From positions 1 through 64,000 of IMG/VR virus record IMGVR_UViG_3300035497_000162: a stretch of DNA of 64,000 nucleotides; one strand, given 5' to 3'. Each line of letters opens with the position of its first letter. The stretch's first letter is position 1. Below the pieces are notes generated by a model. That model did not search any database. It saw only the letters and a list, made by a program, of their open reading frames with translations, and had not been told where the DNA came from. The stretch is from a virus. Lineage: Duplodnaviria > Caudoviricetes. A program made the translations under genes and the position numbers. Shown here piece after piece: positions 7,396 to 53,331 of this stretch.

Positions 7396-8769
7396 ATGAA
7401 AAAGAATAAAAAATTATGGTTTTTACCATTAGTTATAGTAATTATATTAATATTATTAGTTGGATGCTCTAAAACGTGTCCTGATTCATCTAATACTATA
7501 AATAATGAAGTATTAGATAATAGTACTATAGAAACTACTGAACTTCCTAGTGGAATTACTGAAAATGATGAAACTAACTTAGAACAAGAAGGTTTTGAAG
7601 AAACATCAGATGAATTGATATATGGTACTAAATATGATGATATATCTGGAGATTCTGTAGTAAGTTTATCTAAGTCAGATACTGCTAGTACTAGTTTTGT
7701 ATATTACTCTCAAATAGATAGTAGATGGAAAAATCATTCATATACTATATTAGGAGATAGTTCACAGAATATAGGTAGCTCAGGTTGTGGTCCTACTTCA
7801 GCAGCAATGGTAGTATCTTCATTATCTGGAACTTATGGTCAATATACTATAAATCCAGCAGAAATGGGAGATTTATATGTATCTCATGGTTTTAGAACAG
7901 AAAATAGTGGAACTTATTATAGTGCTTTTCAATGGACCGCTACTTATTTTGGACTTGAGTATAATAGAGTATACTCTGTAGATAGTGCAGTAGAATTAAT
8001 TAAACAAGGATACTGTGTTATAATATCTTGCTCTAGTGGATTATTTACTTACAGCGGTCATTTTATAGTAGCTTATGGTTTAGATGGAAATAATATAAAA
8101 ATATATGACCCATATTTATATAATGGAAAATTTGATACTTCAGCTAGAAAAAATAAAGTAACCATATCCGGTAATACAGTATATTGTAGTATAGATACCT
8201 TTAAAAATTATGCTAGTAGCAAAGCTTATTTTGGATTTAAAGGTACTAATAACATAATAGATAATACTACTAATGATACTACATCAAGTAATACTATTAT
8301 AAAGTATGTAAATACTAATAGTGGTAATCTAAATGTTAGAAGTAATAGTAATACTAGTAGTAAAATAATAAGCAGCTTAACTAAAGGTACTCAAGTAGAA
8401 ATAATAGATACTGTTGGAAATTGGAGTAAAATTTCTAATCCTATATCTGGTTGGGTAAATAATAGTTATTTATCTAGCATTAATCCTATTAATACTTCTA
8501 CTGTTATAACTAAATATACTACTGGAACTTATAAAACTAAATGTAACGTAAAAGTAAGAAGTGGTGCTGGTACTAATTATTTAGCTAGAACTTATTCTCA
8601 ATTAACTTCTAATGCTAGACAACAAAATAAAACTTTAGGTAATTACTATTACAATGGTTATTTAAAAGGTGTTAAATTTACTGTAACTAAAATAGTAAAA
8701 GTAGGTAATTATTATTGGGGTAAATGTGCTTCAGGTTACGTTAGATTAGATAATTGTACTAAATTATAA
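7396..8769 (+). CDS. cell-wall hydrolase/endolysin: signal peptide with lipobox, peptidase C39-like domain, SH3b domains
   Basis: LLVGC lipobox; YYSQ.D..W, GCGPTSAAM, GHFIV, IYDP; LNVRS...GWV SH3b. Confidence 0.8.
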   Translation: MKKNKKLWFLPLVIVIILILLVGCSKTCPDSSNTINNEVLDNSTIETTELPSGITENDETNLEQEGFEETSDELIYGTKYDDISGDSVVSLSKSDTASTSFVYYSQIDSRWKNHSYTILGDSSQNIGSSGCGPTSAAMVVSSLSGTYGQYTINPAEMGDLYVSHGFRTENSGTYYSAFQWTATYFGLEYNRVYSVDSAVELIKQGYCVIISCSSGLFTYSGHFIVAYGLDGNNIKIYDPYLYNGKFDTSARKNKVTISGNTVYCSIDTFKNYASSKAYFGFKGTNNIIDNTTNDTTSSNTIIKYVNTNSGNLNVRSNSNTSSKIISSLTKGTQVEIIDTVGNWSKISNPISGWVNNSYLSSINPINTSTVITKYTTGTYKTKCNVKVRSGAGTNYLARTYSQLTSNARQQNKTLGNYYYNGYLKGVKFTVTKIVKVGNYYWGKCASGYVRLDNCTKL

Positions 8770-11235: not shown

Positions 11236-11786
11236 GAGATATAGAAGAAATATTAAAGGATAAAAGAATTAAAAATATTTGGAGAAATGTTCAAAATGAT
11301 AAAGCTATTCAATTAAAATTAGATGTTTATTCTGTATATAACAATAAAATAGCTTTAGCTAAATTTACTAAAGCTTTAGGTTGGGAACATTTAAGTATTT
11401 CATTTTCAGATGAAACTCCTTCTTGGGATTTTACTCAAGAAATGAAAGAATTATTTTGGAAGGATGATGAAGTTTGTTATCAGCTACATCCAACCAAAGA
11501 TAATTATATTAACAATGATGAACACTGTCTCCATTTATGGAAACCTATAGATGAAGAAATACCTTTACCTCCACCTATATTAGTTGGGTTTAGAAAAGGC
11601 CATGAAGAAGATAAAGCTATTCTTAAACAGGTACAAGAAGAATTAGGTAACCCTATGACTGATGAAGAAATAGATTTTATGTATCAAGTTTCCTTTAATA
11701 ATAAAGAAGAAATAGAAAAAATTATTGAAGGTTTAAGTCTAGAACAAGCAGTGAATTTACTCATTAATGGTAGATTTAACAAGTAA
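11232..11786 (+). CDS. conserved phage protein
   Basis: GWEHLSIS...PSWD...QLHP...HCLHLW motif common in phages. Confidence 0.65.
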   Translation: MRDIEEILKDKRIKNIWRNVQNDKAIQLKLDVYSVYNNKIALAKFTKALGWEHLSISFSDETPSWDFTQEMKELFWKDDEVCYQLHPTKDNYINNDEHCLHLWKPIDEEIPLPPPILVGFRKGHEEDKAILKQVQEELGNPMTDEEIDFMYQVSFNNKEEIEKIIEGLSLEQAVNLLINGRFNK

Positions 11787-11818
11787 CTAAACAGAATAAT
11801 AAAATTGTTAAAAATCTA

Positions 11819-11847: not shown

Positions 11848-11859
11848 AAATATAATATT

Positions 11860-11929
11860 GAGGTAGTTTATACCTTTAAAGTACATCGTTACTCATATAG
11901 AGTTTAGGTGTAAAGTTATGTTATTTGAA
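11860..11929 (+). ncRNA. TnpB-type guide scaffold (omegaRNA/tracr-like), cassette 1
   Basis: GAGGTAGTTTATACCT hairpin, TACAT...GTGTA stem, anti-repeat TTATGTTATTT; conserved at five loci. Confidence 0.75.
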
Positions 11930-12139
11930 GTTTTATATGTATATAAAATAACATAGTAATAAAACGATGGCATTCTCATTTTTTCTAAGTTTTATATGTA
12001 TATAAAATAACATAGTAATAAAACTAAGTATCTTCTTCTCGTATGTTTTTCTATGTTTTACATGTATATTAAATAACATAGTAATAAACTTTTGAAAATA
12101 ATTAATATTATATATTAAAAATAACATAATAGTAAAAAC
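11930..12139 (+). CRISPR. mini CRISPR array 1: three 36-nt repeats plus a degenerate terminal copy
   Basis: GTTTTATATGTATATAAAATAACATAGTAATAAAAC at 11930-11965, 11989-12024 and variant 12055-12090; spacers 23 and 30 nt. Confidence 0.9.
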
Positions 12140-33966: not shown

Positions 33967-34257
33967 ATGAAAAAACATAAAATTAATAATTTAGAGCTAA
34001 GAGTATCTGAAGGATTCAATAGTAAATTTAAATATTTAGAGATAGTAGAATGGTCTAATGACTTTGACCATTGTTGGACTATAATTACTTATAAATATGA
34101 TGAGGACTGTGACTGCTATGAATTAAATAGTTGTGGTGATAGACTAAATGACAATAGAATAGACTGGTATGACTTAGGCTGTTTAGTAAAACTTGGATAT
34201 ACTTGGCTAAAAGATAAAGATTTATTTTCTATAAATAAGGAGGAAGATAATGAATAG
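33967..34257 (+). CDS. hypothetical protein
   Basis: ORF with AAGGAGG RBS. Confidence 0.6.
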   Translation: MKKHKINNLELRVSEGFNSKFKYLEIVEWSNDFDHCWTIITYKYDEDCDCYELNSCGDRLNDNRIDWYDLGCLVKLGYTWLKDKDLFSINKEEDNE

Positions 34258-34844: not shown

Positions 34845-37023
34845 ATGATAAAAGTATTAGAATTATTTGCAGGTATAGGGGCTTGTAGTAAAGCACTTGA
34901 AAATCTAGGTATTGAAAGTGTGATTGTTGATGCTGTTGAAATAGATAAGTATGCAATTACAAGTTTTAACGCAATACATAATACAAACTTTGAACCTCAA
35001 GATATTACAAAGTGGGATAAAGATATAGAAGTTGATTTAATAATGCATGGATCACCTTGCCAAGATTTTTCACTTGCAGGGAAACAAGCTGGTGGAGATG
35101 AAGGTAGCGGAACTAGAAGTAGTTTAATGTACGAAACTATAAGAATAGTTGAAAAATTAAAACCAAAATATGTAGTGTGGGAAAATGTGAAGAATCTATT
35201 AAGTAAGAAACATAAACATAATTTTGATGCTTATATAGAAACAATGGAAAAGTTGGGTTATAGCTCATATTATCAAGTTCTAAATGCTAAAGATTATGGA
35301 ATACCACAAAATAGAGAGAGAGTTTATACAGTAAGTATTTTAGGTGATAGAAAGTACGAGTTTCCAGAGGGGGTTAAATGTAATAATGAAGTAGAAGTAT
35401 TAGGAAATTATATGCCTAACGGACACGATGCTTCAAGAATTGTCGACGAAAATGGTATAGTTTCAACAGTAAAAGAGAACCATGGAACAGTTACAGCGGT
35501 ACTACAAAGATTTAAATTTCCACCAAAAGAAGGATTAAAACTAAGACTTAAAGATATGCTTGAAGAAAATGTAGATGAAAAATATTATCTAACAACAGAT
35601 AAGATAAATAAAATACTACATTGGAAATCATATCAAAAGACTTTTGAAAAGGTACTGGGGAATAATAGTATATTTCCTATATTAACTGCTAGAGGAGCAG
35701 GAGAAGAACATAGTGGAATGATTACATATAGCGAAAAACTTGAAGAAACAACTAACTTACAAGGACAATGCTTACATATAAAAAATGCAACTAAAAAAGG
35801 ATACTTAGAAGCTAAAGATGGAGATGGTGTCTATATAACAAATATGGATAAAAAAAGAGGTACAGTGCAAAAAGAAATGATACCAACACTTAAAACATCG
35901 CCTGACATTGGAGTAGTAATTAAAAACACTACTAGTAAAGCTAATGAAGATTGTGTAGAATCTAAAATAACTACACAAAACATAACACAAACAGTAAAAG
36001 TCAGAAAATATCCAATAGAGATAGAAACAGATGAAGTTGATGAAAGTATTAGAAAAGATATAGATAAATATAATTTTGTTTTTCCACCAAAAGAAGAACT
36101 AAGATTAAGATTAAAAGATCTATTAGAGGATGAAGTTGATGAAAAATATTATTTATCAGATAAAATGGTAAACTTCTTTTATAAAAACGAACAAAAACAA
36201 ATAGAATTAGGTAATGGTTTTCGATTTAATGTTACTGATGGAAATGTTATAGCTAAAACAATCACAACAAGAGCAGGAAGTAGAATGGATGATAACTTCC
36301 TGAAAATAAAAAATAATAGAGAAGATCCTAAGTGTTCACTAGTAGGGAACTTAGCAGGAGGAAAGTGGGATAAAATAAATGAAAGTTGTAGAAGAGTTTA
36401 TTCTACGGATGGAATAAGCCCTACTATACACACTTGTCAAGGAGGCAACACAGAACCTAAAATTATCAAAAAAGAAGAGATAACTTCTAATTCTCAAGTA
36501 GGTCAAGTTTACTTAGATGAAGAGCGTGATGGTGTATATGAAAAATCTAATAGAGTATATGATGAAAAAGGTTTAGCACCAACACTTACACAACAAGTAG
36601 AAAAAGTAACTGTAAGATATAATAATAAAGAAGTGGAACTACCTACAATCTGTGCTAGTAGAGGTAGAAATCCTAACAATCCAAGTGATCGCACCGCTGG
36701 AATACCTACGCAACAACGAATTGAAGTAAATACTAGAGGTGTTTCTAATACATTAACAACAGTTCAAAAAGATAATCTTGTTCTTGAATCTGAGATACCT
36801 AACTTAAAAAATGACGGATTAAGAATTAGAAAACTTACTCCAAAAGAGTGTTGGCGTTTGATGCGGATTTGATGATGAAGATTTTGAAAAAGCAAAAGAA
36901 AGCTTAAATAAAACATTCTATAAAGGAAAAGATAAATCAAACTCACAACTTTATAAACAAGCAGGAAACTCAATCGTAGTAAATGTATTAGAAAAAATAT
37001 TTAACAATTTATTTAAGGAGTGA
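34845..37023 (+). CDS. DNA cytosine-5 methyltransferase with very long variable region; +1 shift at CGG 36864-36866
   Basis: LFAGIG, GSPCQDFS, ENVKNL, PQNRER; RLM-GFDDEDF and LYKQAGNSIVV (motifs IX/X) only after skipping C36864. Confidence 0.9.
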
Positions 37024-38220
37024 TTATATGAATGATATTATACATGATGATTGTTTAAATTATATGAATACAATAAAAGATAATTCAATAGATTTAATAT
37101 ATTTAGATCCACCATTTTTTACACAACGTACACAAAAAGGAATTTTAAGAAATGAAGAAAGAATAGTGGAATTTCAAGATTCGTGGAAAGATATAGATGA
37201 ATACACAGAATACATAAAAGTTAGATTAATAGAAATGAAACGAATTTTAAAAGATACTGGAAGTATTTTTTTACATTGCGATAAGATAGCTTCACACTAT
37301 TTGAGAGTTTTACTTGATAATATTTTTGGAATGAATAATTTTCAAAGTGAAATTATATGGTCTTATAAGAGATGGTCAAATTCCAAAAAAGGATTATTAA
37401 ATTCTCATCAAAATATATATTTTTATAGTAAAAGTGCAAGATTTAAATTTAATACTATATATACAGATTATTCTGCTACAACTAATATTGATCAAATATT
37501 ACAACAAAGGAAAAGAGATGAAAATGGTAAATGCGTTTATAAAACTGATGAAAATGGAAATATTATATCTGATAATGAAAAGAAAGGGGTTCCACTTTCT
37601 GATGTATGGGAAATTCCATTTTTAAATCCTAAAGCAAAAGAAAGAGTAGGATATCCAACTCAGAAACCTATACTATTATTAGAAAGAATTATACAAATTG
37701 CAACAGATGAGGGAGATATAGTATTAGATCCTTTTTGTGGAAGCGGAACAACATTGGTAGCATCAAAACTATTGAATAGAAAATATATCGGGATAGATTT
37801 TTCAGAAGATGCAATAAAGATTACGAAAGATAGAATTAACAATCCAATAAAAACTGAATCAGAATTATTAAATAGTGGAATTGAAAAATACAAAAATAAG
37901 AATGGAAAAGAGCTAGAAATTTTAAATTCTATAGGAGCTATACCAGTCCAAAGAAATTCTGGAATAGATGGTTTTATTTTAAACAAAGAAAAAAATGAAA
38001 AAATTGCTATAAAAATCCAAAAGAATACGGAAGAATTAAATGAAGCAAAGAAAAAATTAATTGTTGCTGCATCATCGAAAGGATGTAATTATAAAGTTTT
38101 AATAAAAACAAATGATAATATAGAGCAGCAGAATCTATTTAATAATATTAAAGAAGATGATGTATTTGTTATAGAAACATATAAAGAAATATTTAACAAT
38201 TTATTTAAGGAGTGATTATA
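36995..38220. repeat. 34-bp direct repeats flanking an MTase gene (36995-37028, 38187-38220)
   Basis: AAATATTTAACAATTTATTTAAGGAGTGATTATA twice. Confidence 0.85.
37028..38215 (+). CDS. DNA amino-methyltransferase (beta class) with extra C-terminal domain
   Basis: YLDPPF, YPTQKP, LDPFCGSGTT. Confidence 0.9.
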   Translation: MNDIIHDDCLNYMNTIKDNSIDLIYLDPPFFTQRTQKGILRNEERIVEFQDSWKDIDEYTEYIKVRLIEMKRILKDTGSIFLHCDKIASHYLRVLLDNIFGMNNFQSEIIWSYKRWSNSKKGLLNSHQNIYFYSKSARFKFNTIYTDYSATTNIDQILQQRKRDENGKCVYKTDENGNIISDNEKKGVPLSDVWEIPFLNPKAKERVGYPTQKPILLLERIIQIATDEGDIVLDPFCGSGTTLVASKLLNRKYIGIDFSEDAIKITKDRINNPIKTESELLNSGIEKYKNKNGKELEILNSIGAIPVQRNSGIDGFILNKEKNEKIAIKIQKNTEELNEAKKKLIVAASSKGCNYKVLIKTNDNIEQQNLFNNIKEDDVFVIETYKEIFNNLFKE

Positions 38221-38400
38221 ATGTTCAAAACTAAAAAACAATTAATAGAATCTAATCAAGATATGTTATTCTATAAAACTCAGATAAGTTTAATAGAACA
38301 AGTTCTTAGAGAAGCAAAAGAAACTAATGAAAATCCTTACATCACAATAAGAAAAATTAGAGATAAAGTATATAAATTTTAAAAACTAGATATTATTCTG

Positions 38401-38429
38401 TTTACATTTTTAAAAACTAGGTATATAAT
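38401..38429 (+). promoter_or_regulatory. sigmaA-like promoter
   Basis: TTTACA-17 nt-TATAAT. Confidence 0.65.
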
Positions 38430-38470
38430 TGAATAAATATTATATATTATATTAGAGGAGCTGATTAACT

Positions 38471-38860
38471 ATGAATTTATACACTCTACTTAAAGAAGAT
38501 TCTATATTAAATGAATTTAAGGATAGAATTACTGAAAAGGTTCATTATTCACAAAATTTAATAGATACTTATTTATTAGTGGATGATACCGATGAAGAAT
38601 ACCTTGAAACTTTATCTAAATTATATAATGTATTAGATGAACTTAGTTTAGATTTTAAAAATGTTGGATATGATTATGACCCAGAAGTAGTTCCTGATGT
38701 AGAAGAAGGTGTATTTAGAAATACTCTATCTAAATTTAAAGAACAACTATCTTACATGCTAAATCATTTTAGCGAAGATCTATTCACTAGTGTTAGTACA
38801 GAGATACGATATACTATGAACCTAATAGATGTACATAAAACTAATTTTATAAAAATATAA
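38471..38860 (+). CDS. acidic protein (LxE leader family)
   Basis: LLKED, ILNE at the N-terminus. Confidence 0.5.
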   Translation: MNLYTLLKEDSILNEFKDRITEKVHYSQNLIDTYLLVDDTDEEYLETLSKLYNVLDELSLDFKNVGYDYDPEVVPDVEEGVFRNTLSKFKEQLSYMLNHFSEDLFTSVSTEIRYTMNLIDVHKTNFIKI

Positions 38861-38874
38861 AAGGAGGATTAATT

Positions 38875-39645
38875 ATGAAAAGTAATACTATAGATTTTGT
38901 TAATTCAATTGAGAAATTCAATAACATAACTAAACCAAAAAGAAAACTTACTGAAGCTGAGGAAAATCCAAGTATTAAATTATTTATGAATACTTGGGGA
39001 AACTATAATACTAATGGTGCTGATACTGATTCCATTAAAGGTGGTTGGATGACCCCAGATAAAGCTTTAGTTTGGTGGGAAGAGATGAATAAAGCAGGTG
39101 AAGAACCTTTTATAAACGACGTAGACGATGAAATAGGTTTACCTTTTGAAATAGGTGAAAATGATTACTTACCTGATGTTGTTGATAAAATAAATTTCTA
39201 CATAAATTTAGATGATTATGATATGGAAGTATTTAGTGCTATTATGGAAGCTATGGGTACAGATGATTTTGATGAGGCTAAAGATACTTTTGAAAGTGAT
39301 GATTTCCAATACTTCTCAGGAGTTACAAATGATAAAGAGCTAGGTGAAGCTTATGTAGATGTTTATGGTATGGATGGCATTCCAAATCTAGAAATTTATT
39401 TTGATTATGAAGAACTTGGTAGAGATTTAAGTATTGAATATTATCAAGAAGATGAAGATATGCCTGAAACTGCTGCTGAATATTATACAGGGGATGAAAA
39501 TTCTACTGATCATGAAATAGGCGAAGCCTATGTAGAAATGAATGGTATATCAAATATAGAAAACTATTTTGATTATAAGGCACTTGGTAGAGATTTAAGT
39601 CTTAATGGTCAATACACAGATAAAGGATTTATTTTTATTTATTAA
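38875..39645 (+). CDS. ardA: ArdA-family antirestriction protein with basic N-terminal leader ending KLTEA
   Basis: NTWGNYN..G....GGW, two YFDY..LGRDL motifs, strongly acidic. Confidence 0.8.
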   Translation: MKSNTIDFVNSIEKFNNITKPKRKLTEAEENPSIKLFMNTWGNYNTNGADTDSIKGGWMTPDKALVWWEEMNKAGEEPFINDVDDEIGLPFEIGENDYLPDVVDKINFYINLDDYDMEVFSAIMEAMGTDDFDEAKDTFESDDFQYFSGVTNDKELGEAYVDVYGMDGIPNLEIYFDYEELGRDLSIEYYQEDEDMPETAAEYYTGDENSTDHEIGEAYVEMNGISNIENYFDYKALGRDLSLNGQYTDKGFIFIY

Positions 39646-39977: not shown

Positions 39978-40070
39978 AATATTACACCTTATTTATATAT
40001 ACTAATAGTAGAATAATTCTTGGATTAATTCTACTTAGTTTTATATATCCATTATTTTAACAGTGGAATA

Positions 40071-40102
40071 AAAGGAGGGAATAAAACCTCCTTTTATTTT
40101 TT
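40071..40102 (+). terminator. intrinsic terminator
   Basis: AAAGGAGG / CCTCCTTT hairpin followed by T-run. Confidence 0.65.
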
Positions 40103-40130
40103 GCATAATATAAATAAGAGGTGATTTTAA

Positions 40131-40676
40131 TTGAATAATATAGAGCATATTTATAATACTATGAAAGACGTTACTAATAAGACTCCGGTACTTTTAGTTG
40201 GAGGTGCTATGTTTATCTTCAAAAAAATGTACAGAGGTAATATTTATAGACTAGAAAATACTGACGATGCCAAAGATTTTATAGAGCGTTTTTATAATAT
40301 AGAATATAATAAACCTATAGTAGTAGAAGATATATCTCTACTATATAGAGATACTATACTCCTTAAATTAGTCGAAGAAATAAAATTACCATTAATTTTA
40401 TTAGCTTCTGAGGATAATATTAGTAATACATTACAAAGTAGGATTAAAACTTATATCAAATATCCTGTAAATGAAATTAAATGTTCTTATAATAAAATTC
40501 TAGAATCATTAGATTATATCAATCAAAATGATTTATCTAGTAAAGATTTAGATATTTATATATCTAATAACTGCCCAGAATTAGCTAGATTAAACCATAA
40601 AATGAAACTTAGAAAAAATAAAGATAAATTACAACAAATATTAGGTAGTATCATAGATAATAAGTCAAAAACATAG
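40131..40676 (+). CDS. clamp-loader-like subunit (delta-prime-like degenerate AAA+)
   Basis: VVED...LLKLVEE..LILLAS...TLQSR. Confidence 0.6.
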   Translation: MNNIEHIYNTMKDVTNKTPVLLVGGAMFIFKKMYRGNIYRLENTDDAKDFIERFYNIEYNKPIVVEDISLLYRDTILLKLVEEIKLPLILLASEDNISNTLQSRIKTYIKYPVNEIKCSYNKILESLDYINQNDLSSKDLDIYISNNCPELARLNHKMKLRKNKDKLQQILGSIIDNKSKT

Positions 40677-40703
40677 ACAGAATAATAAAATTGTTAAAAT
40701 CTA

Positions 40704-40732
40704 TTTACATTTTTAACAATATATAATATAAT
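40704..40732 (+). promoter_or_regulatory. sigmaA-like promoter for cassette 4 and tnpB
   Basis: TTTACA-17 nt-TATAAT; inverted repeat TTGTTAAAA/TTTTAACAA. Confidence 0.7.
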
Positions 40733-40745
40733 TAAATATAATATT

Positions 40746-40848
40746 GAGGTAGTTTATACCTTTTAAGTACATCATTACTCATATAGAGCTTAGATGTAAA
40801 ATAACATAGTAATAAAACAACGGCTTAAAAGTTTAGAACTATACTAGA
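40746..40848 (+). ncRNA. guide cassette 4: scaffold lacking the anti-repeat, half repeat (ends 40818) and putative spacer
   Basis: GAGGTAGTTTATACCT...GATGTAAAATAACATAGTAATAAAAC then unique sequence. Confidence 0.7.
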
Positions 40849-40881
40849 TAACGTAATATTATTAGAATGTGAGGTACGATT

Positions 40882-42126
40882 ATGAAATTAGTACATAAAA
40901 AACTATTAGCTTATAAAGTTAGACTATATCCTAATAAAGAGCAAAGAGAATTTATTAATGGTCAATTAGAAACTTGTAGAATATGCTATAATGAAATGCT
41001 TAATAAATATAATGAAGATTATAAAGCATTTAAAGAAGGATTAATTGACGAAAAACCTAACTTAAATTTTAAATATGGCTGGATAAAAGAAAAATATCCT
41101 TGGATGAAAAAATATAATAGCTCACCATTAGATTTTACAGCTAGAAATTTACAAGAGGCTTTTATTAAATATTATGATAATTTTAACCCAAAAGATCCTA
41201 GCTTAGGTAAACCTCAATTTAAAAAGAAGTATAAATTAAATTCTTTTAAATTAAAAAAGGTTCAATTAAAAAATCTAGAGCTTAATTCTTTTGAAATTTC
41301 TAAGTTAAAAAATAAAATAAAATTTATAAATCATAGAAATTTTGATATTTCTAATACTAATAGTATATCTATTATAAAATCTAAATCAGATAAATATTTC
41401 GCAGTATTTTATTTGGAACAAGATTTATTCCCTAAGCTAGATTGTGAACCTAATAACAAAACTATAGCTATAGATTTAGGCGTTAGAAAATATTTTACTT
41501 GGATAGATTCTGAAGGAAACCAAGGTATTATTGAAAATCCTAAAGCTTATAAAGATGAAATGAAACGTATTATATTTTTAGATAAAGTACTAAAACGTAA
41601 AAAGAACGCACACAATAAAAGATATAATTTAAATCATAACGATGGACATATTGAAGAAATACATAAATACTCTAATAGGTACCAAAGAGTTAGAATACAA
41701 AGAGCTAAACATTATGAACATTTAGCTAATATTAGAACCAATTTCTTAAATAACCTTACTACTAAACTAGTAAAAGAATATAATAAAATTATAATAGAAG
41801 ATTGTAGAGTTACTGAACTAATAGATAAAACTACTAAAGAATTTAAGAATAAATCTAGACAAGCTAGAAAGAATATACATAAAGCTCAATATGATGTTGG
41901 TTGGTATAACTTTAGATTAATGCTAGAATATAAATGTAAACTTAATAATAGAGAATTAATAATAGCTGATGAATTTTATAGGTCTACTCAAGAATGTAGT
42001 AATTGTGGTTATATTAATAAAGAGCTAGAAGATGTTAATATTAGAGAATGGACTTGTCCTGAATGTAACACTTATCATGATAGAGATATAAATGCTTGTG
42101 AAAATTTAATGAAAAGATATAATTAA
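40882..42126 (+). CDS. tnpB: RNA-guided nuclease TnpB/Cas12f-like, 414 aa, RuvC triad intact
   Basis: AYKVRLYPNKEQ N-terminus, GKPQFKKK, AIDLG (RuvC-I), IIIED (RuvC-II), CSNCG..CPEC, HDRDINA (RuvC-III). Confidence 0.93.
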   Translation: MKLVHKKLLAYKVRLYPNKEQREFINGQLETCRICYNEMLNKYNEDYKAFKEGLIDEKPNLNFKYGWIKEKYPWMKKYNSSPLDFTARNLQEAFIKYYDNFNPKDPSLGKPQFKKKYKLNSFKLKKVQLKNLELNSFEISKLKNKIKFINHRNFDISNTNSISIIKSKSDKYFAVFYLEQDLFPKLDCEPNNKTIAIDLGVRKYFTWIDSEGNQGIIENPKAYKDEMKRIIFLDKVLKRKKNAHNKRYNLNHNDGHIEEIHKYSNRYQRVRIQRAKHYEHLANIRTNFLNNLTTKLVKEYNKIIIEDCRVTELIDKTTKEFKNKSRQARKNIHKAQYDVGWYNFRLMLEYKCKLNNRELIIADEFYRSTQECSNCGYINKELEDVNIREWTCPECNTYHDRDINACENLMKRYN

Positions 42127-42136
42127 ATATAATATT

Positions 42137-42223
42137 GAGGTAGTTTATACCTTTTAAGTACATCATTACTTTTAATGGAGTTTAGGTGTAAAATTATGTT
42201 ATTATATAACATAGTAATAAAAC
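42137..42223 (+). ncRNA. natural single-guide scaffold (87 nt) immediately 3' of tnpB, cassette 5
   Basis: Same fused architecture as cassette 3; begins 10 nt after the tnpB stop. Confidence 0.8.
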
Positions 42224-42280
42224 GTGGCAAGTACTATCGTATTTCAGGTATTTATTTTATATATAACATAGTAATAAAAC
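42205..42280 (+). CRISPR. mini array 5: half repeat, 30-nt spacer, shortened repeat
   Basis: Spacer GTGGCAAGTACTATCGTATTTCAGGTATTT (42224-42253); repeat ATTTTATATATAACATAGTAATAAAAC (42254-42280). Confidence 0.8.
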
Positions 42281-42327
42281 TAATCATCTTTTCTATATTG
42301 CATATTATATAATAAGAGGTGTAATAT

Positions 42328-42999
42328 ATGTTAAACATAATAAATCATAGTGTTAGAACAAATGATATAGGATTAATTCAATTTATGTACCCTAGTTACA
42401 TTATAATAGATAAACCACCAATTTATTCTGATAAACCTATATTATTTGTTGGAGAAACTAAATATGTTAATAAGATTAAAGAGCTAAATGTTAATTACAT
42501 TATAGTATCTCAAGTAGGAGAAATAGATCTTACAGATAGATTAACTTTATTACAAGTAGCTTTTAGTAAATATAATAAGAATATACCTAAATATTTATTA
42601 TCTTTTTATAACGATTTAGATGATAATACTTTTATGGAATTATTTAAACAGTATTGGATTACTGGAAAGTGGAATCTTAAATCGTATGATAATACTGGTG
42701 CTTTTTTAGAGTTCCTTTATAGTTTTAAGACAGATACTTTCACTATGGCTAAAACTTACTTAGAATTGTTAAATAAAGTAGGTGCTGAATATATAGAAAT
42801 GAGCTTACTTACATTTTTAAATAGAGTAGTAAATACAAGCGGTAATCTATCTAAATGGTACATGAAACTTATAAATGATTATAAATATAGTAAATATAAC
42901 TTAATAGAACCAGCTTTAGAAAAATATATGTCTACTAAAGTATATAATTCAGAGCTTAGAATTTTTAATTTAATACTAGACTTAAATAGGAGAACTTAA
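42328..42999 (+). CDS. hypothetical protein, possible second clamp-loader subunit
   Basis: ORF; position next to 40131 once the tnpB cassette is removed. Confidence 0.5.
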   Translation: MLNIINHSVRTNDIGLIQFMYPSYIIIDKPPIYSDKPILFVGETKYVNKIKELNVNYIIVSQVGEIDLTDRLTLLQVAFSKYNKNIPKYLLSFYNDLDDNTFMELFKQYWITGKWNLKSYDNTGAFLEFLYSFKTDTFTMAKTYLELLNKVGAEYIEMSLLTFLNRVVNTSGNLSKWYMKLINDYKYSKYNLIEPALEKYMSTKVYNSELRIFNLILDLNRRT

Positions 43000-43089
43000 T
43001 AAAGATTAAGTTCTCTTTATTATATTTATTTACATTTAATTTATTTATATAAATAGGAGCTAAAAATAGTAATTTTAGGAGGAATTTAT

Positions 43090-51788: not shown

Positions 51789-53227
51789 TGAATATTCTGG
51801 AAACTGAAAAAACACCATTAGATATATTTTGTGAAGCTAGTGAAATATTAAACGAAGCAGTAGCTCACACTTTAGGTCCTAATGGAACTAATACAGCTAT
51901 ACAAAATAAAAACGGACATTATGAAATAATAAACGATGGTAAATCTATTATAGAAACCATTACTAGTTTAGATCCAGCAATAGCTCCTGCTTTAGAAACT
52001 TTAAAACAAGCTAGTTTTGAAACTAACAAAAAAGCTGGAGATGGAACTACTTCTACTACTATATTAATGAACAGTTTACTTCATGGAGCTAGAAAATACT
52101 TAAATACTATACACGAAGGATTATCTGTTCAAATAGATTTATTTGATTTAATAGATAGTAAATCTAATTATTACAAAATAACTCCTGTAGATTTAAGGAA
52201 CACTTTATTAAAAATAAAAGATGCTTTATTACTTAAATTAGATGAAAATAGAATAGAAATAACCGAGGAAGATTACGAAAAAGTAGCTACAGTGGCTTTA
52301 GGTGATGATAAATATTCTAAAATAATAGCTGATACCTATAAATTTTTAGGTAAAGGTAGGAGACCTACCTTAATAAAATCAGATACTTCTAATATAGAAG
52401 TAGAAAAAATAGATGGAATTAGTCTTACTAAAACTAGTATGGTTAGTAATTTATTTAATAATACTACAGAACATCATGATATAGATGTTATATGTCTATT
52501 TAGCCCAGTAAATAGATTTCAAGAAATGACTCAATTTTTAAGAAAAGTTCAACAATCTGGAAGAGAAACTATATTATTTTATAACCAACTATCTTCTGAT
52601 ATATTAGAAAATATTTTATTTAACTATACTAATGGAGCTATTAAACTTATACCTATTTCTTTACAAGGATATGGTAAGGGTACTTACTCAGTAATGACAG
52701 AATTAGCTGACTACTGTGAATGTTCTATTATTGATAATAATGAATTTAAAATATCTGACGTAAATAAAATTACTTTAGGTAAAATTGATTATTCTGTCAT
52801 CAATTCAGACCAAGTCATTCTGAAAAAAAATTCTAAAAAATTAGAAAAAAACTATTTACATTTAGATGAAAAAAGTATAATAATACACATAGGAGGAACT
52901 AACATACTAGAAAGAGAGGAGGTTTACAGAAGAATAGAAGATGCTATAAATAGTCTAGGTAATGCTATAGATTATGGTATTGTACCTGGTGCTGGAGTAA
53001 CCTACTCTAACCTACTAAACTTAGTTCTGAACGATGAAAACATTAATATAGAAATTCCAGATTTTGTAAAAACTTCTATGAATTTAATTAGAAAAACAAT
53101 CAATGCTTCAGATACTTCTAATATTTACGACTCAGCTATGGTAACTAAAGAAGTTATCGAAAACGCATTTACTATAGTTTCTCAAGTTATAACTACACAC
53201 GTAGTAATACACGACAACATAAGATAA
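51788..53227 (+). CDS. groEL: phage chaperonin, GroEL-like
   Basis: TLGPNG, INDG.SI, AGDGTTST, IEDAI, GIVPGAG. Confidence 0.88.
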   Translation: MNILETEKTPLDIFCEASEILNEAVAHTLGPNGTNTAIQNKNGHYEIINDGKSIIETITSLDPAIAPALETLKQASFETNKKAGDGTTSTTILMNSLLHGARKYLNTIHEGLSVQIDLFDLIDSKSNYYKITPVDLRNTLLKIKDALLLKLDENRIEITEEDYEKVATVALGDDKYSKIIADTYKFLGKGRRPTLIKSDTSNIEVEKIDGISLTKTSMVSNLFNNTTEHHDIDVICLFSPVNRFQEMTQFLRKVQQSGRETILFYNQLSSDILENILFNYTNGAIKLIPISLQGYGKGTYSVMTELADYCECSIIDNNEFKISDVNKITLGKIDYSVINSDQVILKKNSKKLEKNYLHLDEKSIIIHIGGTNILEREEVYRRIEDAINSLGNAIDYGIVPGAGVTYSNLLNLVLNDENINIEIPDFVKTSMNLIRKTINASDTSNIYDSAMVTKEVIENAFTIVSQVITTHVVIHDNIR

Positions 53228-53331
53228 CGTAATATAATAAAATAAGGAAAATTTAAACATAGTAATAAATATAAATATACGAATCGATAAAGTTGTCAAG
53301 CTTATTAACTTAAAGAGAGGAAGATTTAACG

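Follow-up and report, generated by a model that had tools for sequence, protein, structure and literature searches.

Nucleases of the TnpB family have been recruited to CRISPR arrays in several described systems. Transposon-CRISPR intermediates of this kind are termed TranC (Jin et al., Cell 2025, doi 10.1016/j.cell.2025.09.004, as outlined in PMC13565253 and PMC13639567), and 40 type V-U branches (V-U6 to V-U45) represent independent associations of TnpB with arrays (PMC10691335). CauTranC9, a phage-borne member of TranC clade 9, is reported to have 38-bp repeats and one array of five, and its clade has a mean of 414 amino acids (aa). The clade lacks both the C-terminal domain of ISDra2 TnpB and a REC or WED expansion, and it lies in a Caudoviricetes genome with spacers that match phages (bioRxiv 10.64898/2026.03.27.714800). 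Cas12r of Thermus Lalka phages is a 564-aa protein with a single array of 29-bp repeats; it needs no trans-activating CRISPR RNA (tracrRNA), its spacers match integrative elements, its interference with plasmids and phages was shown experimentally, and adaptation by the host was inferred (bioRxiv 10.64898/2026.04.20.719267). Here we describe a tnpB gene accompanied by CRISPR-like cassettes in a T4-like phage, IMG/VR record IMGVR_UViG_3300035497_000162. The record has 119,730 bp and a GC content of 26%, and is 94% complete by CheckV; its first 64 kb, counted from position 1, are the window.

We consider it probable that tnpB has been domesticated and vertically inherited in a lineage of T4-like phages, and that its product serves as the sole effector of a minimal, CRISPR-like system whose grade is that of TranC or type V-U. 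One genome then holds three states of the same TnpB guide RNA: a collapsed state like an omegaRNA, a fused single guide, and a split state made of a tracrRNA-like part plus an array. The presence of these three states beside an effector of TnpB size and TnpB fold would make the RNA-splitting route from transposon guide to CRISPR testable with one protein and its native RNAs.

Results

The tnpB locus is made up of the following features.

40677-40742, + strand: predicted promoter module of the upstream cassette, in which a 23-nucleotide (nt) block ACAGAATAATAAAATTGTTAAAA precedes TTTACA and TATAAT, spaced by 17 nt (40704-40732)
40744-40818, + strand: cassette 4, collapsed guide scaffold with helices P1 and P2/P3 and a single-stranded tail formed by the last ~21 nt of the repeat (40798-40818)
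40819-40834, + strand: 16-mer in guide position, AACGGCTTAAAAGTTT, directly after the repeat tail of cassette 4
40882-42126, + strand: tnpB, encoding a 414-aa RNA-guided nuclease of the TnpB family with intact RuvC and a C4 zinc finger
42117-42170, + strand: 54-nt block that covers the last tnpB codons and the stop and contains TATAAT
42135-42223, + strand: cassette 5, fused natural single-guide scaffold with P1, P2/P3, anti-repeat UUAUGUUAU, UAU loop, AUAACAUAG and free tail UAAUAAAAC
42224-42253, + strand: spacer of cassette 5, 30 nt, GTGGCAAGTACTATCGTATTTCAGGTATTT, between the repeat tail and the next repeat
42254-42280, + strand: shortened repeat of cassette 5, 27 nt, ATTTTATATATAACATAGTAATAAAAC, which is the 36-nt consensus less 9 nt of its 5' half

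An earlier reading of the window from its letters alone (the sequence-only reading) had seen the same scaffold on both sides of the gene. A 54-nt block (repeat family D1) is indeed 100% identical between 40726-40779 and 42117-42170, but the upstream copy is collapsed: its anti-repeat:repeat hairpin has been lost, and the scaffold joins the end of the repeat directly. The downstream copy had been placed 10 nt after the stop codon; the conserved scaffold (TTGAGG) in fact starts at 42135, 8 nt past the stop, and the identical block begins within the last codons. The order proposed for this copy (scaffold, 3' half of the repeat, 30-nt spacer, repeat) holds, with the amendments that an anti-repeat and a TAT loop intervene and that the last repeat has 27 nt when measured against the full repeats at 11930, 26207 and 28986.

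Both flanking cassettes were recognized by covariance model R1, which had been built without the related loci L126 and L008. Cassette 4 scored 76.5 bits (E 1.4e-11) and matched repeat family D2 at 90%; its minimum free energy (MFE) fold consists of two helices and a free tail (z -2.0). Cassette 5 scored 89.7 bits and folds into three helices at an MFE of -20.4 kcal/mol (z -2.9). P3 of cassette 5 is unlike P3 of cassette 4, and the pairing is kept. The sequence TTTACA-17-TATAAT (40704-40732) is the best sigma-70-like match in the region (11/12 positions) and is a prediction only; the 23-nt block ACAGAATAATAAAATTGTTAAAA is identical upstream of three cassettes (the one upstream of tnpB, plus copies at 11791 and 28786), each time with a promoter-like TTTACA-17-TATAAT site. 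A candidate promoter with 10/12 matches, TTGTGA-16-TATAAT, lies at 42096-42123.

The scaffold is not confined to the tnpB locus. Ten scaffold cores were found genome-wide, all on the + strand (11860, 26137, 28871, 40746, 42137, 71855, 75668, 76573, 76867 and 89991). Within the window, the 36-nt scaffold core was observed 4 times against 0.00 expected, and the 16-nt repeat tail 11 times against 0.54 expected. Seven of the ten cassettes have the split form, in which a scaffold of ~70 nt ending in the anti-repeat TTATGTTATTTGAG is followed by one to four 36-nt repeats and spacers of 27-30 nt; the repeat consensus is GTTTTATATGTATA(T/C)(A/T)AAATAACATAGTAATAAAAC. Two (28871 and 42137) have the fused form, with anti-repeat, TAT loop and 3' part of the repeat joined as in a designed single guide, and the one upstream of tnpB (40746) has the collapsed form, in which the anti-repeat is lost as well. 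The remaining cassettes of the window, and a remnant, are as follows.

11858-12138, + strand: cassette 1, split; scaffold and two bounded spacers among three to four repeats, of which the last ones are degenerate
26135-26374, + strand: cassette 2, split; scaffold, three 36-nt repeats and two 30-nt spacers, directly after an open reading frame (ORF), with an ATTTGAG/GTTTT junction
28869-29021, + strand: cassette 3; fused single-guide first unit, 29-nt spacer and full-length degenerate 36-nt repeat
27983-28030: remnant of an eleventh cassette, heavily deleted; P1 hairpin AATGAGGTAGTTTATACCTT and a degenerate repeat-like tail ATAAAATAATAACAGTAGAAAGG, just 5' of an ORF start

A common fold of the scaffold was found on one strand. 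With RNAalifold, eight copies from three lineages gave -12.97 kcal/mol on the + strand, with 25 pairs (6 compensatory), whereas the reverse complements of the same copies gave -0.44 kcal/mol and 9 pairs, from the anti-repeat duplex alone. When the structure was written on eleven copies, 95.3% of cells paired; slid controls gave 30-56%. In five pairs both partners are changed, and the covariation score was reached by 1 of 500 shuffles. Several pairs are G.U in most copies, and the pairing is valid on the + strand alone. Single-sequence folds of six copies show P1, P2/P3 and an anti-repeat:repeat helix and leave the final 8 nt and the guide unpaired, and P3 varies with compensation within this genome (CUC/GAG, ACUUU/GGAGU, ACUUC/GAAGU). 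The anti-repeat pairs with the 3' half of the repeat, so that ~8 nt (AAUAAAAC) and the guide remain as a single-stranded 3' end; the duplex has 11-12 bp in every split cassette and ~30 bp in L126, and its sequence differs between lineages while the pairing is kept. Because the fold is specific to the + strand and its free guide is 3', the geometry is that of TnpB and Cas12 and not that of Cas9, in which the guide is 5'. The guide RNA is thus predicted to be split into a tracrRNA-like scaffold bearing the anti-repeat and a CRISPR RNA (crRNA) derived from the repeat.

Model R1 also found L126 and L008 (46.6 bits, E 8e-6), and it matched none of 30 ordinary TnpB loci. A weak model match in L126 at 7858-7943 proved to be a terminator hairpin and was set aside. 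An E-value-mode scan of positions 40000-43000 against Rfam returned no known RNA family, apart from one small-RNA match at chance level.

Close relatives of the protein are few. Among 5.8 billion clustered proteins, three 90% clusters are more than 50% identical to the phage TnpB (its own, P0003 and P0004), and an exhaustive search of the 50% representatives added three lineages alone, at 37-41% identity (P0139, P0140 and P0141). Catalytic residues are lost in P0139 (HDRC for HDRD) and P0141 (N, P and N at the three RuvC positions), which suggests that these two may be nuclease-dead offshoots of the same branch. Protein-seeded scans of IMG/VR and the JGI metagenomes returned ordinary TnpBs alone (identity of 33% or less), in collections from which close relatives are possibly absent. 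The two-repeat pattern was not found in these collections, which possibly hold no close relatives of the window genome, and a 15-mer of the repeat gave single chance matches alone.

The association of cassettes with tnpB in related phages had been set beforehand as a test of the sequence-only reading, and it was borne out as far as the loci of three lineages could show: the scaffold follows the tnpB stop in each of them, and synteny is conserved. The contigs of P0003/P0122 (L008, L126) and P0004/P0138 (L009, L129) carry a homologous scaffold ~10-13 nt past the tnpB stop, followed by arrays with 36-nt repeats. L126 and L129 have retained the gene order 181-aa gene, tnpB, array, 223-aa gene and SpoVS-like gene, with neighbouring proteins 60-82% identical and TnpB 51-54% identical to those of the present phage. 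Synteny together with this divergence fits long residence in a phage lineage rather than recent insertion. In both relatives the copy beside tnpB is of the full split form, so the fused and collapsed copies of the present genome are most simply explained as deletion derivatives and not as ancestral omegaRNAs.

The arrays appear to turn over at the scaffold-proximal end. L008 and L126 are 97-99% identical in DNA, and 22 of the 25 differences within the 722 nt after tnpB sit in the first, scaffold-proximal spacer; this 30-nt spacer has been swapped cleanly, with its length unchanged. Together with the + strand fold and the 3' guide, this turnover supports, at the level of sequence, the earlier proposal that the phage encodes a compact system like type V, its omegaRNA-like scaffold being joined to a CRISPR repeat.

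All spacers differ between the present phage and the L126/L008 lineage, except AACGGCTTAAAAGTTT. This 16-mer stands twice after repeats at the distal array end of L126 and L008, where TnpB is just 54% identical; in L126 the copies (11751-11766 and 11854-11869) are bounded to 17-18 nt by degenerate repeats. No further match to it was found in the phage's own genome, and IMG/VR gave 0 matches. The 24 matches in GTDB species genomes are scattered, have unrelated flanks and were taken as chance. The 16-mer may have been selected as a guide to some conserved external site, may serve regulation, or may be an ancestral guide that has been preserved. For the cassette 5 spacer GTGGCAAGTACTATCGTATTTCAGGTATTT, no match with 6 or fewer mismatches was found in the own genome or in the 21-kb loci of the relatives; an 18-nt match in IMG/VR stops matching after 19 nt and was also regarded as chance. 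As a separate observation, a 13-mer GATAACGTAATAT has exactly 2 copies in the genome, one (40847-40859) just 3' of the cassette 4 guide and the other at 53223, 20 nt upstream of a degenerate repeat tail AACATAGTAATAAATA (window 53223-53271). The pair may reflect a regulatory motif that both places share, or a fragment of a cassette that has been scrambled.

The product of tnpB (P0001; ORF 40882-42126, 0 internal stops) belongs to the TnpB family. Its Pfam domains, all above cut-off, are HTH_OrfB_IS605, OrfB_IS605 and Cas12f1-like_TNB (PF12323, PF01385 and PF07282), and it scored 207 bits against the NCBIfam TnpB model NF040570 (cut-off 100). Against the 'exception' type model NF038281 (IS200_TnpB) the score was 239.6 bits, under the cut-off of 425. 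The 414 residues and three RuvC acids noted earlier were confirmed: D198, E306 and D402 are intact, and this triad and C372/C375/C392/C395 are invariant in a 53-sequence alignment. In a phmmer comparison, ISDra2 TnpB matched the full length of the phage protein (residues 10-411; E 1e-32, 117 bits). Since the protein ends 12 residues past the last catalytic Asp, it is without the C-terminal domain of ISDra2 TnpB. Relative to ordinary TnpBs of 357 aa, it has two insertions, at residues 243-262 and 319-331, and the first of these (20 aa) is confined to array-linked lineages in the alignments. By length and alignment, an expansion of REC or WED is absent. The gene contains 0 CGG triplets.

The AlphaFold2 model (predicted local distance difference test score 87) has PDB entries 8h1j and 8iaz as its top fold matches. 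Foldseek template modelling (TM) scores were 0.69-0.78 for ISDra2 and ISFba1 TnpB, 0.58-0.65 for LaTranC and about 0.55-0.59 for Cas12f. PADLOC profiles for Cas12u4 and Cas12f match the protein at E 1e-37 to 1e-39; with phmmer, no Cas12f chain matched at E <= 1, and LaTranC matched over the C-terminal 150 residues alone (62 bits). Identity with Cas12f (type V-F) was rejected, as sequence and fold are nearer TnpB and there is no REC or WED expansion.

Two spacers match genes of the phage itself at 28 of 30 positions, which is beyond chance. The matched sites are as follows.

71192-71221: near-self site 1, about 640 bp upstream of its cassette, within the ORF whose end lies just ahead of that cassette
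33969-33998: near-self site 2, at the start of a 96-aa ORF

Matches of 28/30 to self point to close relatives of the phage as the probable targets and support the earlier suggestion that the system is aimed at competing phages.

The arrays have the format of type II-A arrays, with a 36-nt repeat GTTTT...AAAAC, spacers of ~30 nt and the junction ATTTGAG/GTTT between scaffold and repeat. Of the 7 split cassettes, 5 carry this junction exactly and two read ATTTGAA; the relatives have ATTTGAC or ATTTGAT. In Group 1 type II-A arrays, ATTTGAG/GTTT is conserved where leader and repeat meet and is needed for spacer integration (PMC5382924). The likeness suggests that host enzymes write spacers at the scaffold-repeat junction. 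A type II-A CRISPR-Cas system as such was rejected, on the grounds that the fold forms on the + strand alone, the guide is 3' and the phage has no Cas1 or Cas2 (Cas9 and Csn2 were not searched for). As a further observation, all three lineages have a palindrome in the 5' half of the repeat, although its sequence is not the same in any two of them (TATATGTATATA, TATACCTGTATA and TATAGCTATATA); the places are as follows.

Window 26207-26226; L129 11354-11373; L126 11386-11405: palindromic 5' halves of repeats

A conserved RNA helix at this position was rejected, as the palindrome is broken in 4 of the 7 own copies; the palindrome may act at the level of DNA, as a motif that an integrase recognizes.

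Some cassettes lie flush with tRNA genes.

L155 4590-4877 and 5790-5973, the same as G000 75589-75876 and 76789-76972: tRNA-flush cassettes

tRNA-Thr and tRNA-Cys end 3-5 nt ahead of scaffold starts, which sets the scaffold's 5' end at about UUGAGG, and tRNA-Gln starts exactly where one 30-nt guide ends. We infer that RNase P and RNase Z of the host would release these guide RNAs. A tRNA-like 3' half, GGTTCAAATCC, lies after the last repeat at G000 76744 and was not called by ARAGORN.

The record encodes a T4-type Gp23 capsid protein, and 92 of its long ORFs are on the + strand, compared with 1 on the - strand. There is one copy of tnpB. Y1 TnpA, Cas1 and Cas2 were all not found in the whole 119,730 bp, a search that did not include Cas9 or Csn2. 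The earlier statement that the gene lacks tnpA and IS (insertion sequence) ends was thereby upheld, the flanks being direct copies of one element. The neighbours of tnpB encode DNA methyltransferases, an ArdA-like anti-restriction protein and a SpoVS-like protein. Since two DNA methyltransferase genes and the ArdA-like gene lie directly upstream of the tnpB module (window 34845-39645), tnpB stands in a counter-defence neighbourhood.

Discussion

We propose the following course of events for this phage. Transcripts would start from the cassette promoters or be freed from the flanking tRNAs. The first unit of each cassette would fold in cis as a one-piece guide, while later repeat-spacer units would pair in trans with the scaffold, acting as a tracrRNA, and be trimmed by TnpB itself or by RNases of the host. 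Once loaded with RNA, TnpB would then cut DNA that bears a transposon-adjacent motif (TAM) and a match to the guide. The main targets are likely to be close phage relatives co-infecting the same cell; the phage's own alleles would escape through mismatches, and its own arrays would escape as the repeat occupies the position of the TAM. The phage is without an integrase of its own, and new spacers are therefore probably written by host adaptation enzymes, at the scaffold-repeat junction. Under this scheme, the downstream cassette would be a deletion-derived fused single guide with one extra unit, and the upstream cassette, in the likely 5' leader of tnpB, would carry the 16-nt guide conserved across lineages. 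Such a system would combine an effector of very small size (414 aa) and a guide scaffold of about 86 nt. If the apparent meaning of the near-self spacers is the true one, T4-like phages turn programmable nucleases on their kin and borrow the spacer-writing machinery of the host to do so.

Several observations weigh against this interpretation. Promoter calls are weak in DNA of 26% GC, where 34 were found and 28.9 were expected. The third helix is missing from cassette 4, which may be inactive, and the second repeat of cassette 5 is truncated. The covariation comes mostly from one diverged lineage, and therefore from few independent events. For a TnpB omegaRNA, a scaffold of ~70 nt is short. 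Searches of INPHARED (with three array stretches), IMG/VR and the relatives' loci found no true protospacer; the target class rests on the two near-self matches, and their 5' flanks, AACCT and TTAAT, share no clear TAM.

Two other explanations place the origin or the use of the cassettes outside the TnpB of the phage. The gene could be an ordinary insertion of IS200/IS605 type (IS1341-like), that is, a selfish tnpB whose flanks are transposon ends or omegaRNA and whose other copies are MITE-like (miniature inverted-repeat transposable element-like) and moved by a host TnpA. It is true that the best sequence and fold matches are transposon TnpBs, that stand-alone scaffold copies exist, that cassette 4, in its collapsed form, looks like an omegaRNA in one piece with a guide of 16 nt, and that the scaffold starts at the 3' end of the ORF, the place of an omegaRNA. 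However, the conserved part of that scaffold begins 8 nt past the stop, and its guides are array spacers in 36/30 repeat-spacer arrays with polar spacer replacement. tnpA is absent and tnpB is single; the site is syntenic in three lineages whose TnpBs are 51-54% identical; the flanks are direct copies of one element instead of distinct left and right ends; and model R1 found no likeness to the scaffold in 30 ordinary TnpB loci. We regard such an insertion as extremely improbable. Hardly more credible is the explanation that the cassettes serve a host Cas9, as phage-borne arrays of type II-A style or single-guide mimics that hijack or block it, their adjacency to tnpB being incidental. The 36-nt GTTTT...AAAAC repeat, the ~30-nt spacers and the ATTTGAG/GTTT junction are as in type II-A, the fused form reads guide, repeat, loop, anti-repeat and hairpins on the minus strand, and phage single-guide RNA mimics of Cas9 have been reported (10.64898/2026.06.01.729453). 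Against this, the fold lies on the + strand (-12.97 versus -0.44 kcal/mol, with conserved G.U pairs), as do 92 of 93 long ORFs, the tRNAs and the promoter modules; in three of three lineages the tnpB stop is followed by the scaffold, and an anti-repeat paired with the 3' half of the repeat, with the guide 3', is the geometry of Cas12 and TnpB. On the strength of the strand-specific structure, we rejected the form of this explanation in which the cassettes are Cas9 decoys.

Two further explanations accept the link to TnpB and differ in what the cassettes do. TnpB might be mainly regulatory, binding phage or host promoters with short or mismatched guides and leaving them uncut, as TldR or Cas12m do, with the 16-nt guide upstream of tnpB as the key regulator. 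The conservation of this one guide across lineages in which the other spacers all differ, its bounds of 17-18 nt in L126, the position of cassette 4 in the probable tnpB leader and the loss of catalytic residues in the more distant P0139 and P0141 speak for such a role. The triad is nevertheless intact and invariant in the three array-linked lineages, most guides have 27-30 nt and turn over, and no target of the conserved guide was found in the phage; we hold a mainly regulatory function to be improbable. It is somewhat less improbable, though still unlikely, that the two cassettes flanking tnpB are decayed, functionless deletion products and that working guides are confined to the seven split cassettes. 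The fully split copy beside tnpB in the relatives marks the fused and collapsed states as derived, cassette 4 is without helix 3, repeat 2 of cassette 5 is short by 9 nt, and a further remnant lies at 27983. On the other hand, P1-P3 are kept in both and P3 of cassette 5 is compensated, the fused hairpin resembles a designed single guide, the guide of cassette 4 is conserved in another lineage, and the 54-nt block is still 100% identical.

The minimal CRISPR-like system that we favour may also be extended. In one speculative form, to which we give a rather low likelihood, the ten cassettes would be RNA-guided homing units, each with a scaffold and guides of its own: TnpB would cut alleles of sibling phages, and recombinational repair templated by the genome with the cassette would copy the cassette with flanking markers into the rival, guides having been written by host type II-A enzymes at ATTTGAG/GTTT. 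They would then correspond, in programmable form, to T4's homing endonucleases Seg and Mob, which would explain why scaffolds are multiplied and scattered, as opposed to one tracrRNA per array. One spacer is directed at a variant of the gene 640 bp upstream of its own cassette, and some cuts would thus fall right beside a cassette.

Among solved structures, the closest relative is ISDra2 TnpB (PDB 8h1j, 8exa; PMC10097598), by sequence (E 1e-32) and by fold (TMt 0.78). The two share the order of domains, the RuvC and zinc finger residues and a 3' guide on a structured RNA from the 3' end of the gene, and the 16-nt guide of cassette 4 has the length used by ISDra2. Unlike ISDra2 TnpB, the phage gene is not in a transposon, its genome is without TnpA, and its protein has no C-terminal domain and carries insertions at 243-262 and 319-331. 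The phage scaffold lies wholly past the stop and is about half as long; its guide-proximal stem consists of anti-repeat and CRISPR repeat, and its guides are array spacers of 27-30 nt.

Type V-U systems and Cas12f (PMC10691335) resemble the present locus in the independent recruitment of TnpB to downstream arrays without cas genes. Cas12f itself differs, as its fold score of 0.55-0.59 is below that of the TnpB match and the phage protein has no REC or WED expansion. Virus-borne CRISPR mini-arrays (PMC11656645) are similar in that they are scattered, hold 1-3 spacers aimed at close relatives of the carrier and use repeats of host format; they employ a host effector, whereas the present phage has its own effector and a private scaffold RNA for each array. 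Cas12r is likewise a TnpB-like nuclease of lytic phages with a short array directly after it and no adaptation genes, and its nuclease-proximal spacers differ while the last spacer is shared. It belongs to another branch of TnpB, and its targets are integrative elements rather than sibling phages.

The likeness is greatest to TranC, which in the outlines cited above combines a TnpB-sized effector of 300-600 aa, the absence of cas1 and cas2, an array downstream of the effector, and a scaffold divided between a tracrRNA-like part and a crRNA that derives from the repeat; by sequence, the phage system has the same traits. LaTranC is clearly on another branch, matching at 62 bits over the C-terminal part compared with 117 bits for ISDra2 TnpB. 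The present protein fits CauTranC9, likened by description alone, in its ~414 aa, its missing C-terminal domain and the absence of a REC or WED expansion. In contrast to the 38-bp repeats and single array reported for CauTranC9, it is accompanied by 36-nt repeats in ten dispersed cassettes, each with its own scaffold. The sequence-only reading had called the locus a candidate new intermediate; that category is already in print (TranC, type V-U, Cas12r, CauTranC9). In the published TranC-type descriptions covered here, we did not find ten dispersed scaffold cassettes, fused beside split states, or tRNA-flush cassettes. Judged from its sequence, the system is by definition a transposon-CRISPR intermediate of a published class, and it represents a rare and unusually arranged lineage with a new architecture.

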